24,000 bases of DNA, taken from the NCBI GenBank assembly GCA_015655975.1, contig DVEP01000035.1, positions 45,157 through 69,156 of the forward strand, given 5' to 3'. Source of the stretch: Eubacterium sp. (lineage in GTDB: Bacteria > Bacillota > Clostridia > Oscillospirales > Acutalibacteraceae). A program made the translations under genes and the position numbers. Under the pieces are notes generated by a model, which saw only the letters and a list, made by a program, of their open reading frames with translations, was not told the origin of the DNA and made no database searches. The stretch's first letter is position 1; each line of letters starts with the position of its first letter. This document shows, in pieces, positions 13,772-19,873 of this stretch.

Positions 13772-14089
13772 TGTGAACACTCCTTTTCATTTCTTTTTGC
13801 GTTTGCAAAAGTATTGTTTGTTGAAATACGCAAAATACAAATGAAAAATTTTGACAATAAAAAAGCAGAAATTGTAAATGTATCAACACCGTTTTTTATC
13901 AGTTTCTAAGTATTTAAAAATTAATCTGTTGAATATATCAATAATTATAAATTCATAAAATTCGTATATTACTTTATCATCGAAAGTAAACGATACAGTG
14001 TACATAAAACAGGACGCTGTTTTTATTTTTGTTGAAATAAAAACATCAGTATGATATGCTCAAATCAGAATATGAAAGGAGTTGGTCAT

Positions 14090-14785
14090 TTGTCATACTA
14101 TATAAACAAAAACAGTGGAATTATTCACAAAAATACTTGTTCATATTCAAAAAGAACGCTTGAAAATAATTCTTTATATGTAACTTCTGTTTTCGACGAG
14201 TTAAACAACGGACACCGTTTTTGTAAATGCTGTTGTAAAAACAATATTATTGAAAATTTCACGGAATTGATGAAAGAAAATAATATTGTATATCAGTTGA
14301 GTGATGACGGCAGTACAGAAATAGAAACTCCTGTAAGTAAATGGAAAATAGTATATTATGGAGATAAACCTGTTCTGTATCATAAAAATGACTACTATAT
14401 CCAAAGTACAGTTTCTAAAATTGAAGGCTATCATTATCAAACAAATAAATTAAAAAATATTCACAGTATATTAAACTATATTATTTGCCACGATGATTAC
14501 AGAAAAACGCACAACATTAACTATGATTCTGTAAAAACAGGAAGATTCAGTGTGAATATCGACCCTTATATTTTAAGGCATATTAAAGCACCTTTTCCAA
14601 AAAGCGAACGAGTTAAACGATTGGAAAGTTACAGAAAAGAAAATCCAAATCCCCAAAATTTCAGCAAAAACAGTAAAAAAGGTAAAAAGAAACATTTAAA
14701 ACAAAAGCGTAATGCAATAAAACTTGCAAACAATAACAACTTTGAAAGAGTCGCTTTTCTTCTTGATTTGATTGCCGTAAAATAA
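14090..14785 (+). CDS. Hypothetical protein with a Cys/His-rich N-terminus and a lysine-rich C-terminal tail; no family recognised
   Basis: The ORF is open from ATG 14051. The only good SD (AAAGGAG, 14075-14081) lies 8 nt before TTG 14090; ATG 14072 and ATG 14051 are alternatives. The N-terminus IIHKNTCSYS...NGHRFCKCCC resembles the short YH-x3-C...C-x2-C Ada-like zinc motif. The tail is KNSKKGKKKHLKQKR. Confidence 0.55.
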   Translation: MSYYINKNSGIIHKNTCSYSKRTLENNSLYVTSVFDELNNGHRFCKCCCKNNIIENFTELMKENNIVYQLSDDGSTEIETPVSKWKIVYYGDKPVLYHKNDYYIQSTVSKIEGYHYQTNKLKNIHSILNYIICHDDYRKTHNINYDSVKTGRFSVNIDPYILRHIKAPFPKSERVKRLESYRKENPNPQNFSKNSKKGKKKHLKQKRNAIKLANNNNFERVAFLLDLIAVK

Positions 14786-14841
14786 TGAATTTCATAAAAT
14801 AGCTTGCCGTCTGCATATTTAAAATCTGCACCAAAAGTTTG

Positions 14842-14877
14842 TTTTTGCTTTATAAATTATTTTTAATATGGCATAAT
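14842..14877 (+). repeat. Decayed terminal CRISPR repeat (24/36 identity) that retains an extended -10 box
   Basis: tttttgctttataaattatttttaatatggcataat matches the repeat consensus at 24 of 36 positions. It ends exactly 30 nt, one spacer length, before the first intact repeat. It keeps TGGCATAAT at 14869-14877. Confidence 0.5.
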
Positions 14878-14907
14878 TATCCGTTTTAATTTTAATATTG
14901 TTAATAG

Positions 14908-15140
14908 ATTGTAGTTTCCTAATTATTCTTGGTATGGTATAATAGTGTAGCTATTGCTTTCGGGGTCAATAGTATTGTAGTTCCCTAATTATTCTTGGTA
15001 TGGTATAATGGAAATCGCAAAATATGCACAAGCATATTAATTGTAGTTCCCTAATTATTCTTGGTATGGTATAATTTCTTTGAACCTCATTATCAGGAAG
15101 ATACATTGTAGTTCCCTAATTATTCTTGGTATGGTATAAT
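14908..15140 (+). CRISPR. Type II-C CRISPR array: four 36-nt repeats, three spacers (30, 30 and 29 nt), crRNA sense on the plus strand
   Basis: Repeat ATTGTAGTTCCCTAATTATTCTTGGTATGGTATAAT occurs at 14908-14943 (C-to-T at 14917), 14974-15009, 15040-15075 and 15105-15140. Orientation is set by complementarity to the minus-strand tracrRNA anti-repeat. Each repeat ends in TGGTATAAT on the plus strand. Confidence 0.95.
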
Positions 15141-15198
15141 AGAAGAACGAATAATTAAGGAACAGAGCCAAATTCAAGAATTTTTAGTGAAATAAAAA

Positions 15199-15240
15199 AG
15201 AGAAAACATAGGTAATTTTCACCCATGTTTTCTCTTTTTT
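15199..15240. terminator. Bidirectional terminator shared by cas2 (minus) and the CRISPR array (plus)
   Basis: Perfect 11-bp stem: agagaaaacat (15199-15209) pairs with atgttttctct (15225-15235). An A-run lies on the left and a T-run on the right. It overlaps the cas2 stop codon. Confidence 0.75.
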
Positions 15241-15565
15241 ACAACAATGTCAGTTGTTCAAAAGACTCCGAAACATCACACTGCTTGTATTCTCCAAGCA
15301 ATATTTCTATTGACTCATATTGCTTTTCAGTAATTGTCAGCAATCTTACAGAGCCGTTTTGAGGCAAATTTTGTTTCAGTCTGTTTGTATGCGCCTTAAC
15401 AGAATCATATCCGTTGCAGACTCGAGCATATACGGAGTATTGAACCATTAGATACCCGTCTTTCAAAAGGAAGTTCCTAAACCTCGAAGCAGCTTTTTGT
15501 TCTGATTTTTCCTTTACAGGTAAATCAAAAAATACAATCATTCTCATAAACTTAGTCATAATCAA
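15239..15565 (-). CDS. cas2: CRISPR-associated endoribonuclease Cas2 (type II)
   Basis: About 100 aa. MRMIVFFDLPV...FRNFLLKDGYLMVQYSVYARV...LLTITEKQ is typical of type II Cas2. It overlaps the cas1 stop. The start is ambiguous among four in-frame ATGs at 15565, 15559, 15547 and 15541. Confidence 0.9.
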   Translation of the reverse strand: MIMTKFMRMIVFFDLPVKEKSEQKAASRFRNFLLKDGYLMVQYSVYARVCNGYDSVKAHTNRLKQNLPQNGSVRLLTITEKQYESIEILLGEYKQCDVSESFEQLTLL

Positions 15566-16448
15566 AATATGTCGTTTTAACTATCTTTGGCAACTTCAAA
15601 TTTACGGTTTCTTCTTCAAATGAAGTTACAAGACTTTGAATCAAAACCTCGATTGCTTTTGTCAAAGACCAGCGTTCATTATTTACAGTTACAACACTGT
15701 TCAAAAGTTTTTGAAGCTCTGCTTTTTGATATGTGTCAAAAGAGTTTTCCCAACTATCATAGTTTTGAGCAACAAAAACATCCACAACAGGTCTGAAAGG
15801 CTCAATCAAATCGTCTGCCAAATTAAACGAGTTCAGTTGATTTTTATGATGAACTCCCAAAGCCGGTTCTAAACCATAGCAAACCAAACTTTTTGCAATA
15901 AAAGACCTGATTACAGCGTATCCGTAATTGAGTGCTGAATTTATAACGCAGTCTCGGTCTCTTGTAAAATCGTTACCAAACAACAATTTAAAATATACAG
16001 ACGCAGCATAGCCCTCTCGATTATTTGTATCGCCTGATTGCACACTTTTTGAAATTGCAATCAATTTTCCATTGTCAATATTATTTATCTTCAGACACTC
16101 AGCCTGATTTTCTATTTTTCGTACCACTATCTGTTGCCAAATCCGTTTTAATTTTGGTTTAGATTGTGATATTTGCAACTCTATTCTCTTCAAAGAGCGA
16201 CAATATGACCCTATGGGAACAAGACTTGCACTCGGCGTATGCTTTTCATCACAAAGAATCAAGCATACGCCTTGTTCACTCAAATACGAAACTAATTTAG
16301 CGCTGAGCGTTGTTCTCGGATTGTCAACAACAATGCTTTTAATATCTTCAATCGGAAAAGAAAACTCGTTTCCGTTAAAAACAATCAACTGGTTGTTTTT
16401 AAGTCTCATTTTTGCTTCATTTGCAATAAAAATATTTCTGTACGGCAT
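15552..16448 (-). CDS. cas1: CRISPR-associated integrase Cas1 (type II)
   Basis: 298 aa with a type II Cas1-like sequence (NALNYGYAVIRS, GLEPALGVHH, DLIEPFRPVVD). The ATG lies 1 nt after the cas9 stop. Confidence 0.93.
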   Translation of the reverse strand: MPYRNIFIANEAKMRLKNNQLIVFNGNEFSFPIEDIKSIVVDNPRTTLSAKLVSYLSEQGVCLILCDEKHTPSASLVPIGSYCRSLKRIELQISQSKPKLKRIWQQIVVRKIENQAECLKINNIDNGKLIAISKSVQSGDTNNREGYAASVYFKLLFGNDFTRDRDCVINSALNYGYAVIRSFIAKSLVCYGLEPALGVHHKNQLNSFNLADDLIEPFRPVVDVFVAQNYDSWENSFDTYQKAELQKLLNSVVTVNNERWSLTKAIEVLIQSLVTSFEEETVNLKLPKIVKTTYFDYD

Positions 16449-16449
16449 A

Positions 16450-19400
16450 TCAATTATTAGTATTAAACTTTAATCTTTTTTCACTGTTCACTTTTGTAAC
16501 ATTTCCTATCGGGTCAACAGTAAATTTTTCTATGTTTAAAAGCGTCTTTATACCTAAACTTTTTATTTTGTGTGTTCCGTCAGAATTAAAAACAGTTATA
16601 GATGCTGTACCTATATCAGAATTATTGTAATACAAGAACATACCGTTACCGTAAATCTCTTTTGGAAGCGTACTGTTTTTGTTGACTAAACTTAATTTCA
16701 TATCTTTTTTTGCAGTAACACGAATTAAATCGTTTTGATAAAGTGAAAAGCAAAAGTCTTTGTCTTCCATTTCTTTCCATTCGTCGTATGATTTAAATGC
16801 AACACACGCCAAATTCGGCAACTCTTTTTTCACGGTGTCCGCAGTATAAATCGGCACAAAATAGTAGCCGTCATTTTCAACATGAAATACATCTATCCTT
16901 ACCATTGAACCGTTATCTGCAATACCGTTTCCGTTTCTCACGGAAACATTCATTGTGGACTTTTTGATTGTTTTTACCTTTTTCACTATCGGTCCGTTTG
17001 TACCGTCCGACTTTGGCTTATAGAAAGGATTTTCATCGTTGAAGTCAGCAAAAGCCTTTTCACCGTTACCTCCGTACTCTTCAAGACGCTTTTTCAAAGC
17101 GTTGTAAAGCAACAAATCGCTCTCTTTGTCGTAGTAATTTTCAATTTCACCGTCTTTCCCGAGTTTCAACTTTGTAAGAGGAACTTTTGAAACAGAATAG
17201 CCTTTGACCTTTCCCGAACGAATTGTATCCTCGTGAGCCACACCCTTTGTTTTTCTGTTCGGCATTCTTGATACAAAACACGGCTTAATGTTTTCAATAT
17301 CTTCTGCGGAATAGTTCGGCAAGCGATACAGTTCTTTAATCATATTATTGACATTCGTGCAAGTTCTTGCCTCAAGTTCCTTTCTGAAAGTCGGATATGG
17401 ATACGGAAAACTGTCAGCAACTTCCCCTTCAGAATCGACAACTATATTTTCAGAGTATTGCAACTCCTTATACTTGGAATACTTTGAAACTTTTTGTATC
17501 AAAGCATCTGTCGTACAGGCAATAACAGTTGCATCTACTGCATGGTGCAGGTCGCCGTCTTCTCTTATTTTTTTAATTCCCCATCTTTTTCTCAAGTACG
17601 AAGTTGTAGCACCGTTTACGGCTGTAACATGTTTTTTTCTTCCGTTTTCAAAATCTTCAAAAATCAAATGGTCATTAATGTAATTGTACAAAACTCTGCT
17701 CAAATACTTCGTATCGTTCAAAGTTCTTTCTTTAAACCCTTTAAATTCATTTTCACTGATATTTTCTTTAAGCAGATTTTGTCTTTTTTTAAAGTTTTTG
17801 ATATTTGCATTTACCCAAACTTTAAAGTTTTCTTGTTTTTCCCCTGTGAGATACTGCAATGGCAAACGAGTTCCTTTTTGTCTGTTTTCATTTGCAAAAA
17901 CAAGAACTTTATTATTGTAACTGTCGTCAAAACTGATACTGTAAGGTACAATATGGTCAACATCGACATATCCGTCACTGAAAAGCAATTCATACTTAAT
18001 AGGCTTTTGAGAATACGGACAAATTCCGTCCTGTTCTCTCCACAATTTCAACTTAACTATATCTAATCCGCTTGCATTTGATTTGTGGAAATTATCATAC
18101 AATTCATCCTTAATTTTAGAATTGTTCTCATTGTTTTTCTTGTTTTCGTTCTCTATGTCTTTTCTGTCAGCAAAGTTTTTGGAAAGTTCTCTTGCCAATT
18201 CAATGTTTATATATGTAGGACTGGTCCCTTGTTCTCTTATAATTGCATTTACAACTTTTATTGTCTGTGAAACGGCTCTTCTTACAACGGGGTTTGTAAC
18301 ATCTTCCAATTCATACGAAAAAGCAGGCAAGGTAAAACTTCTTTCGCCTTTATCGTGTGCTTTGAAATCAAATCCGACCTCTGCACACGCCTTATCATAA
18401 GTCAACCCTTTTTCTAAATAAGGAATAAGCATATCGCACGCTTTTACAGACAAATGTCCGAATTTTGAAAATGAACTTATATTTAAAATATAATCGTATA
18501 AAAACTCATCTATTTCAAAATCTTTCAATGCATTTAAAATCTTTGCATCATCTTTGTGAACAGTCAAAGCATATCCGATACAATTTAATTCTTCCCTTGA
18601 AAGTTTTTGAATGTACCCTTTTTGAAATTTATCAAGTGCTTTTCTGATATTGTGATACTGTTTCAGATATTCAAACTTTGACTTTTTTTCTGCTTCTTCA
18701 ATTTCTTTAAATCCGTAAGAAACTGTTGAAAATCTTTTATCAGTTGAAATATCCAATTCTTTTCTTATTTTTGAATAATTTACACTCGGAGATTTATGGC
18801 ACAATTCAAAGACTTTCGTTCTTTCTCCGTCTGTAAGAAAACGAGAACTTCCGTTATCAGAAACAATTTTTATACTATTAATTTTTTGCCACAAAGTAAA
18901 TAACTGGAAAGAATATGTTGCTTTTGCCGCTCTCGGCTCTTCAGGGAAAAATGTACATTTTCCAATCATTTTTTCTATTTGATTTCCAAAATACGGGCTT
19001 CTGCAATTTTCAGGACCTTCTCCCGGACCTAAATCAAACGGTCTTTGTGACAGTAAAATATTTTTATACTGTTCTTTTATTTCATCTGAAGCAAAGTCGC
19101 AGCCAAATGATTTTTGCACACTAAAAATTTTGTCTGCTTCATCTTCAATCATATTTCGTGAAACTGTATTTAGATATATTCCGCCTTTATTTCTTTTATG
19201 TAAAGCATATTTTTCATCTTTAAAAAACATTTCTCCGACAGTACGATAACCGTTTTTTTGCATTGTTTCTTCGTTTTCACTTATGGCATTTAACAAAAGT
19301 CCTTTTTCTTTGTCTGTACTGTCTGTTTTTCTGTTAGATTTAAAACCACGCCTTTGTGCCAAATTAATCAGCACTCTTGCAAATTCTTTGTTTGACAAAG

Positions 19401-19728
19401 GTCTGTCTAAAGCCTCTGTCCTTACTTGATAAATACCACTGAGCGGAGATTCAAAAAGATTTGTCAATTCATCTTCAGTCAATATCTTTTCTTTTATAAT
19501 GAGAAATCTTATACGCTCCAATCTGTGATTGTGTCTTCTGATTCTTCTTCGATTTCCTCTTGCCTCTCTTCTCGGAAGTGCAAGGGACGAGCCGTCTTTA
19601 GGATTTTCCGCTTCGCTGAAAATCCTTGAACCGAGTTTTACAATTCTGTATGGCTGGTCGTTTAACAATTCAACAACCGAAAAACCTACAGATGCAACAC
19701 CACAGTCTAAACCAATAGCATATTTCAT
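16450..19728 (-). CDS. cas9: Cas9 endonuclease, compact type II-C-like (1092 aa)
   Basis: RuvC-I is MKYAIGLDCGVASVGF and the Arg-rich bridge helix is RREARGNRRRIRRHNHRLERIRFL. RuvC-II is INIELARE, HNH is DVDHIVPYSISFDDSYNNKVLVFANENRQKG, and RuvC-III is LHHAVDA. The II-C-like C-terminal block is VRIDVFHVENDGYYFVPIY. A GGAGGAG SD (19741-19735) sits 6 nt before ATG 19728. The six-frame ORF start (GTG 19743) lies inside that SD. Confidence 0.95.
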   Translation of the reverse strand: MKYAIGLDCGVASVGFSVVELLNDQPYRIVKLGSRIFSEAENPKDGSSLALPRREARGNRRRIRRHNHRLERIRFLIIKEKILTEDELTNLFESPLSGIYQVRTEALDRPLSNKEFARVLINLAQRRGFKSNRKTDSTDKEKGLLLNAISENEETMQKNGYRTVGEMFFKDEKYALHKRNKGGIYLNTVSRNMIEDEADKIFSVQKSFGCDFASDEIKEQYKNILLSQRPFDLGPGEGPENCRSPYFGNQIEKMIGKCTFFPEEPRAAKATYSFQLFTLWQKINSIKIVSDNGSSRFLTDGERTKVFELCHKSPSVNYSKIRKELDISTDKRFSTVSYGFKEIEEAEKKSKFEYLKQYHNIRKALDKFQKGYIQKLSREELNCIGYALTVHKDDAKILNALKDFEIDEFLYDYILNISSFSKFGHLSVKACDMLIPYLEKGLTYDKACAEVGFDFKAHDKGERSFTLPAFSYELEDVTNPVVRRAVSQTIKVVNAIIREQGTSPTYINIELARELSKNFADRKDIENENKKNNENNSKIKDELYDNFHKSNASGLDIVKLKLWREQDGICPYSQKPIKYELLFSDGYVDVDHIVPYSISFDDSYNNKVLVFANENRQKGTRLPLQYLTGEKQENFKVWVNANIKNFKKRQNLLKENISENEFKGFKERTLNDTKYLSRVLYNYINDHLIFEDFENGRKKHVTAVNGATTSYLRKRWGIKKIREDGDLHHAVDATVIACTTDALIQKVSKYSKYKELQYSENIVVDSEGEVADSFPYPYPTFRKELEARTCTNVNNMIKELYRLPNYSAEDIENIKPCFVSRMPNRKTKGVAHEDTIRSGKVKGYSVSKVPLTKLKLGKDGEIENYYDKESDLLLYNALKKRLEEYGGNGEKAFADFNDENPFYKPKSDGTNGPIVKKVKTIKKSTMNVSVRNGNGIADNGSMVRIDVFHVENDGYYFVPIYTADTVKKELPNLACVAFKSYDEWKEMEDKDFCFSLYQNDLIRVTAKKDMKLSLVNKNSTLPKEIYGNGMFLYYNNSDIGTASITVFNSDGTHKIKSLGIKTLLNIEKFTVDPIGNVTKVNSEKRLKFNTNN

Positions 19729-19744
19729 AATAAACTCCTCCACT

Positions 19745-19838
19745 AAAAAGATAACGACCCACCGAAGTGAGTCGTTAGCGCTTTTCGGTTTTCTACCTTT
19801 TTGTAGTAACCTAATTGTTCTTGGTATGGTATAAGAAC
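19745..19838 (-). ncRNA. tracrRNA: Predicted tracrRNA (about 94 nt)
   Basis: The anti-repeat (19835-19800) is complementary to the crRNA repeat at 31 of 36 positions, with a 2-nt internal mismatch at repeat positions 9-10. It is followed by ACAAAAAGG and a 10-bp terminator stem with a UUCG loop (19776-19753), then AUCUUUUU. G19838 lies exactly 7 nt downstream of a consensus -10. Confidence 0.8.
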
Positions 19839-19844
19839 AATTAC

Positions 19845-19873
19845 ATTATAGCCGAGGAACTTGAATTTGTCAA
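19845..19873 (-). promoter_or_regulatory. Consensus sigma-A promoter of the tracrRNA (TTGACA-17-TATAAT)
   Basis: On the minus strand, TTGACA is at 19873-19868, followed by a 17-nt spacer and TATAAT at 19850-19845. Confidence 0.75.

Follow-up and report, generated by a model that had tools for sequence, protein, structure and literature searches.

A promoter for every spacer is treated in the literature as a general feature of type II-C CRISPR systems. For Neisseria meningitidis (Zhang et al. 2013, Mol Cell 50:488), reviews and later papers describe promoters embedded in the repeats, transcription starts about 6 nt into each spacer and dispensability of RNase III; new spacers in this species tend toward the leader end. 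In Campylobacter jejuni, dRNA-seq (Dugar et al. 2013) revealed a start within each spacer, served by a −10 box toward the 3′ end of the preceding repeat; the repeat side of the crRNA is processed by RNase III and tracrRNA. The array of Geobacillus stearothermophilus (GeoCas9) is transcribed opposite to the cas genes and yields 23-nt guides; the word "promoter" does not occur in the main text of the GeoCas9 paper, and repeat promoters are not discussed there. In Clostridium cellulolyticum H10 (CcCas9; Fedorova et al. 2020), the repeats end in nine bases resembling an extended −10 element, the array again runs opposite to the cas genes and crRNAs carry 23–26 nt of spacer, expression having been measured only in E. 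coli.

The locus described here lies in a 24,000-nt stretch of DNA (the window) from the metagenome-assembled genome (MAG) of a gut Clostridiales. Its cas operon consists of cas9, cas1 and cas2 only, adjacent on the minus strand (Table 1), and neither csn2 nor cas4 was found at the locus, which assigns it to type II-C. The elements are ordered tracrRNA, cas9, cas1, cas2, terminator, leader and array. An ABC transporter ATPase gene sits beyond the tracrRNA, and the only ORF adjoining the array (14051–14785, plus strand, 244 aa) had no NCBIfam or Pfam match. The true cas9 start is likely the ATG at 19728 (MKYAIGLDCG), behind the ribosome-binding site GGAGGAG at 19741–19735, which gives a protein of 1092 aa. 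On balance, we consider it quite probable that this is an intact, small type II-C locus in which an extended −10 element at the end of each repeat makes each crRNA.

Table 1 Features of the CRISPR–Cas locus, in window coordinates.
Feature	Position	Strand	Size	Basis or remark
Decayed first ("extra") repeat unit	14842–14877	+		24/36 positions as in the repeat; oldest, cas-distal
Spacer 1	14878–14907	+	30 nt	Oldest
Repeat 1	14908–14943	+		One mismatch (C10T); extended −10 TGGTATAAT at 14935–14943
Spacer 2	14944–14973	+	30 nt	Predicted start around G14950
Repeat 2	14974–15009	+		Extended −10 at 15001–15009
Spacer 3	15010–15039	+	30 nt	
Repeat 3	15040–15075	+		Extended −10 at 15067–15075
Spacer 4	15076–15104	+	29 nt	Cas-proximal, presumably newest
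Repeat 4	15105–15140	+		Last, leader-adjacent; extended −10 at 15132–15140
Leader-like stretch	15141–15195	+		Between repeat 4 and terminator
Long hairpin	15196–15238			A-run and T-run on its flanks
cas2	15239–15565	−	108 aa	TIGR01573, 4.6e-25
cas1, type II	15552–16448	−	298 aa	TIGR03639 cas1_NMENI, 6e-88
cas9, type II-C size	16450–19743	−		ORF as listed, from GTG 19743; TIGR01865, 1.4e-246, full length
Predicted tracrRNA	19745–19838	−	about 94 nt	Complementarity to repeat
tracrRNA anti-repeat	about 19835–19801	−		Followed by a short hairpin
tracrRNA terminator stem	19777–19752	−		Followed by a T-run
tracrRNA promoter	19845–19873	−		Perfect TTGACA-17-TATAAT

The window Cas9 is a compact enzyme (class of about 1000–1100 aa) of the Nme/Geo clade, with GeoCas9-type proteins as its best PDB matches, followed by NmeCas9. 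The best solved-structure matches include 9ar4 (5e-246), which we take to be ThermoCas9, a relative of GeoCas9. Two others, 8uza and 8uzb (E about 1e-242), appear in GeoCas9 papers. NmeCas9 is clearly homologous (6jdq, E 1e-183), and the N. meningitidis locus likewise contains cas9, cas1 and cas2 only. In the GeoCas9 system the tracrRNA also lies upstream of cas9, whereas the host is a thermophilic Bacillales rather than a gut Clostridiales, and the middle of the repeat and the tail of the tracrRNA differ from those in the window. The host of CcCas9 belongs to the same class as that of the window, and its tracrRNA is, by the published description, upstream of the cas genes; CcCas9 measures 1021 aa compared to 1092 aa here, and its spacers are 31 bp long. 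Much more distant is the Cas9 of C. jejuni (5x2g, E 4e-69), an Epsilonproteobacterium with a promoter style unlike that of the window.

The array occupies the plus strand and comprises four 36-nt repeats, with the sequence ATTGTAGTTCCCTAATTATTCTTGGTATGGTATAAT, and a decayed unit one period upstream. A first-pass annotation had proposed that each repeat carries an extended −10 element at its 3′ end. The last nine bases of all four intact repeats are indeed TGGTATAAT, exactly at the coordinates it gave; the ending it assigned to the decayed repeat, TGGCATAAT at 14869–14877, was present as well, as were the candidate start bases G14883, G14950, G15017 and G15082. One step further upstream, the element reads TATGgTATAAT, that is, TRTGnTATAAT, the "−16 region" form reportedly typical of Gram-positive promoters. 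The same nine bases form the 3′ end of the 36-nt GeoCas9 repeat, GUCAUAGUUCCCCUGAGAUUAUCGCUGUGGUAUAAU. The 36-nt N. meningitidis repeat (GTTGTAGCTCCC...TGCTACAAT), which the annotation had given exactly, also has an extended −10 at its 3′ end. As had been claimed, the hexamer in the window is the closer of the two to consensus (TATAAT vs TACAAT), and the window element carries the TRTG motif, unlike that of Neisseria, whose phylum also differs.

No −35-like hexamer lies at 16–18 bp in the repeat, so any promoter activity must rest on the extended −10. A generic two-hexamer promoter scan did not call the repeats, as expected for an element without a −35, and this was not counted against them. 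A Bacteroidetes host, suggested by the low GC content and expected to use a different promoter consensus, was rejected in view of the Clostridiales match and the perfect sigma-70-type tracrRNA promoters found family-wide. The motif TGNTATAAT occurs five times in the window compared to 1.08 expected, a count reached in none of 100 shuffles, and the odds of a repeat ending exactly in a motif of eight specified bases are ~6e-5 as estimated from base composition. The four array copies are one repeat copied and not independent occurrences, so the real test is comparative, and conservation over 32 distinct homologous repeats (below) is a stronger argument than these odds.

The orientation of the array was read from the tracrRNA, which was located by complementarity to the repeat because Rfam, at gathering thresholds, gave no match in the whole window. 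Its predicted duplex with the plus-strand repeat spans 34 bp (−42.5 kcal/mol). Since the anti-repeat, the promoter and the terminator all place the tracrRNA on the minus strand, crRNAs must be read from the plus strand, in the direction of cas2, in agreement with the crRNA sense proposed at first pass. The repeat also has the polarity of the GeoCas9 crRNA repeat (GUCAUAGUUCCC...UGUGGUAUAAU), which comes after the guide. Both the tracrRNA complementarity and the GeoCas9 crRNA homology thus agree with the earlier proposal of an array convergent with the cas operon, which would be transcribed opposite to the cas genes. The long hairpin between the two would then act as a bidirectional terminator. 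The reverse arrangement, with crRNAs made from the minus strand co-directionally with cas9–cas1–cas2 and the plus-strand TATAAT irrelevant, is highly improbable. The array does lie downstream of cas2, where operon read-through could in principle reach it, but minus-strand crRNAs could not pair with an anti-repeat that is itself minus-strand between a minus-strand promoter and terminator, and a strong hairpin terminator separates cas2 from the array. The GeoCas9 and CcCas9 arrays are, moreover, experimentally antisense to cas, and the repeat polarity agrees with the GeoCas9 crRNA. The four spacers gave only chance-level matches in an isolate-phage collection (E about 9) and therefore offer no PAM- or target-based check of orientation.

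The T-run of the tracrRNA terminator stops about 3 nt short of the ribosome-binding site of cas9. This leaves no space for a separate cas9 promoter, and expression of cas9 would have to depend either on transcripts that read through the tracrRNA terminator or on a promoter that lies within the tracrRNA gene or upstream of it.

Related loci were collected in two ways. A single-protein search of a genome collection returned one relative only (L001), the uncultured Clostridiales MAG UMGS213, whose Cas9 is 95% identical to that of the window. Its array shares the window repeat and also has a decayed unit at the cas-distal end, but all of its ten spacers are different. An alignment-based (profile) metagenome scan added another 80 loci, most of them from the human gut, whose Cas9 proteins are 48–61% identical; arrays recovered from about 70 of the 80 gave 32 distinct 36-nt repeats. 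In crRNA sense, T28 and G29 are invariant among these 32, position 30 (the "n" of the element) is free to be G, T or A, and the hexamer is conserved at T31 (97%), A32 (97%), T33 (84%), A34 (97%), A35 (94%) and T36 (88%). Per-position conservation of the repeat end, as read from this alignment, tracks the promoter consensus, while the middle of the repeat (positions 14–21) varies widely. Little or no variation is seen at positions 22–27 (TTGGTA) either; these are not part of the promoter element, and their conservation is not explained by the promoter alone.

The tracrRNA layout recurs in the relatives in which it was located, with the anti-repeat on the cas9 strand upstream of cas9 and a sigma-70-like promoter ahead of it. 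In these relatives, covariation between anti-repeat and repeat extends up to and including position 35: a repeat with GGTTTGGTACAA is matched by an anti-repeat with CCAAACC...TTGTACC, and one with TGTTATAA by its complement. The 3′ half of the repeat thus pairs and covaries with the tracrRNA, so part of its conservation reflects the RNA duplex or its processing.

Such pairing would fit a rival explanation in which the array is expressed mainly as one long pre-crRNA from outside and matured in a type II-A-like manner by RNase III and 5′ trimming. The repeat end would then be kept because it pairs with the tracrRNA, is processed by RNase III or takes part in Cas1–Cas2 integration, rather than as a promoter. 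The transcript could come by read-through from the ORF at 14051–14785 or from a weak promoter, TTGCCG-17-TAAAAT, at 14772–14800. No terminator lies between this plus-strand ORF and the array, so a read-through pre-crRNA may contribute as well, and the full covarying pairing to position 35, the reach of the invariant positions 22–29 past a minimal promoter and the weak −10 hexamers of some relatives also fit this explanation. Against it, the profile of TG, a variable n and TAtAAT follows the promoter consensus, repeat promoters have experimental precedent in homologous systems, and T36 is kept though mostly unpaired. We therefore judge an outside pre-crRNA as the main source of the crRNAs unlikely, and the family-wide conservation patterns, on the sequences compared, favour promoter function over RNA-duplex constraint alone.

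Opposite T36, most lineages have a non-complementary or wobble base in the anti-repeat, so a T conserved there is not needed for the duplex and fits the −7 T of a −10 hexamer. The window anti-repeat copies the last 13 bases of the repeat except the final one: the plus strand at 19827–19835, complementary to the 5′ end of the anti-repeat, reads TGGTATAAG, not TGGTATAAT. Read on the repeat strand, anti-repeats end in TGGTATAAG, -AAA or -AAC, the final base being G, A or C in most lineages; the exceptions are L024 and L046 (TGATACAAT) and L044 (TGGTATATT). The missing −7 T leaves repeat position 36 unpaired and would disable a potential antisense promoter within the tracrRNA gene.

The oldest end of the array bears on the same choice between a promoter in each repeat and an outside transcript. 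In the window, the 5′ half of the first unit is decayed, while its 3′ end keeps TATGGCATAAT, and spacer 1 would have this −10 as its only driver. At least eight of the last nine repeat bases are kept in 37 of 51 distinct upstream units, 29–31 nt before the next repeat, compared to 7 of 1,830 control 9-mers from further upstream that match equally well; over positions 1–12 of those 37 units, identity to the repeat is only 44%. Remnants of just 8–13 nt, essentially the extended −10, occur in several independent lineages (...ATGGTATAAT, ...TATGGTATAAT and ...GGGTATAAT). Stubs reduced to the promoter element, still 30 nt from the next repeat, speak against an outside pre-crRNA. They are as would be expected if the first unit were kept as the promoter of the oldest spacer while its crRNA-forming part was lost, and are supportive of repeat promoters, not decisive. 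In many CRISPR types the outer part of a terminal repeat is prone to decay, and a first unit that has decayed mainly on its 5′ side is therefore not peculiar to the promoter model. A decayed 5′ half would also limit extraneous crRNA arising from read-through, as has been proposed generally for type II-C arrays, and the old-end stub would be a dedicated promoter unable to form such a crRNA. Tentatively, and with slightly less than even confidence, the −10-only stubs and the loss of the −7 T in the anti-repeat may be regarded as two footprints, in this GeoCas9-like Clostridial clade, of selection on repeat-promoter activity; if so, they could be an expression-free signature for recognising promoter-per-spacer arrays.

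At one locus (L022), the stub upstream of the array is TTGACTTTGCCTCTTGACGTGGTATAAT, of which only TGGTATAAT is repeat-derived. A TTGACT hexamer lies 16 nt upstream of its TATAAT, and the remnant resembles a complete −35/−10 promoter.

In the window, as in most relatives, the decayed unit is found on the cas-distal, upstream side of the array. Three related arrays (L032, L033 and L063) have spacers 1–5 in common at the cas-distal end and diverge toward cas2; the shared old spacers fit acquisition at the cas-proximal last repeat. The window and L001 have no spacers in common, so acquisition polarity is unreadable from that pair. The wholly different ten spacers of L001 do point to recent acquisition in the lineage, which argues against the view that the array is a degenerating leftover without meaningful expression and its motif a relic inherited from an ancestral type II-C repeat. 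The small size of the array (four spacers and a decayed terminal unit), the single mismatch in repeat 1 and the lack of matches to the spacers in the isolate-phage collection would suit a remnant. Three of the four repeats are nevertheless identical, the full-length cas9, cas1 and cas2 score strongly against their families, and the tracrRNA gene retains an intact perfect promoter and a terminator, so that we regard a decaying array as very unlikely.

In the reading we prefer, an active array with a promoter in each repeat, the housekeeping sigma factor and RNA polymerase would use the extended −10 at each repeat end without a −35 element. Plus-strand transcription would start about 6–8 nt into the adjoining 30-nt spacer and proceed toward cas2, so that each crRNA would have a primary 5′ end and a guide of about 22–24 nt. 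The following repeat would pair with the tracrRNA anti-repeat and be bound by Cas9, and RNase III would probably trim the 3′ (repeat) side. New spacers would enter at the cas2-proximal last repeat, and the decayed first unit would serve mainly as the promoter of the oldest spacer. The analogy to N. meningitidis and C. jejuni drawn at first pass holds, spacer-internal primary starts having been published for both. The accompanying description of the crRNAs as processing-independent can stand at most for their 5′ ends; on the 3′ side, the long repeat:anti-repeat duplex (34 bp) predicts RNase III cleavage, as in Neisseria and Campylobacter. Among 661 unique 30-nt spacers, the purine share at positions 6–8 was 0.51–0.53, with no enrichment, which is uninformative rather than contrary to the predicted starts.

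At the cas-proximal end, the extended −10 of repeat 4 would fire into the leader and give no crRNA. Most relatives have a strong terminator (A-run, hairpin and T-run) within about 50 nt after the last repeat, so a transcript from the last repeat's promoter would be short and without a repeat. The leader-like stretch at 15141–15195 is near-identical in L001. The hairpin begins within about 15 nt of the last repeat in most relatives, after a short conserved motif (AGGCTA/AGAC...), and about 55 nt from it in the window and L001.

Earlier work has described this mechanism in type II-C systems, and the same nine-base motif has been published, so the understanding of CRISPR biology is unchanged; only the −10-only old-end stubs and the systematic absence of the −7 T from the anti-repeat are mildly new. 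One promoter per crRNA is here predicted for the type II-C system of a further lineage, an uncultured human-gut Clostridiales, and by extension for a large clade of its relatives in gut metagenomes. The prediction can be used to annotate array orientation, to predict guide length (about 22–24 nt of the 30-nt spacer) and, if the window Cas9 ever becomes a tool, in guide design.

Poor −10 hexamers (TAAAAC, CACAAC and TATATG) occur in a few related repeats, which end in TGGTAAAAC, TGACACAAC and TGATATATG (loci L020, L029, L078 and L012), and the promoter is thus not shared by the whole clade. A quick read of the sequence upstream of the L020 array showed no obvious external promoter. In L024 (6018–6850), the whole array module of decayed unit, repeats, leader and terminator is inverted relative to cas9–cas1–cas2. 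There, array and cas operon run in the same direction, with the decayed first unit overlapping the stop codon of cas2; the internal polarity of the module is unchanged, with the decayed unit first and the terminator after the last repeat.
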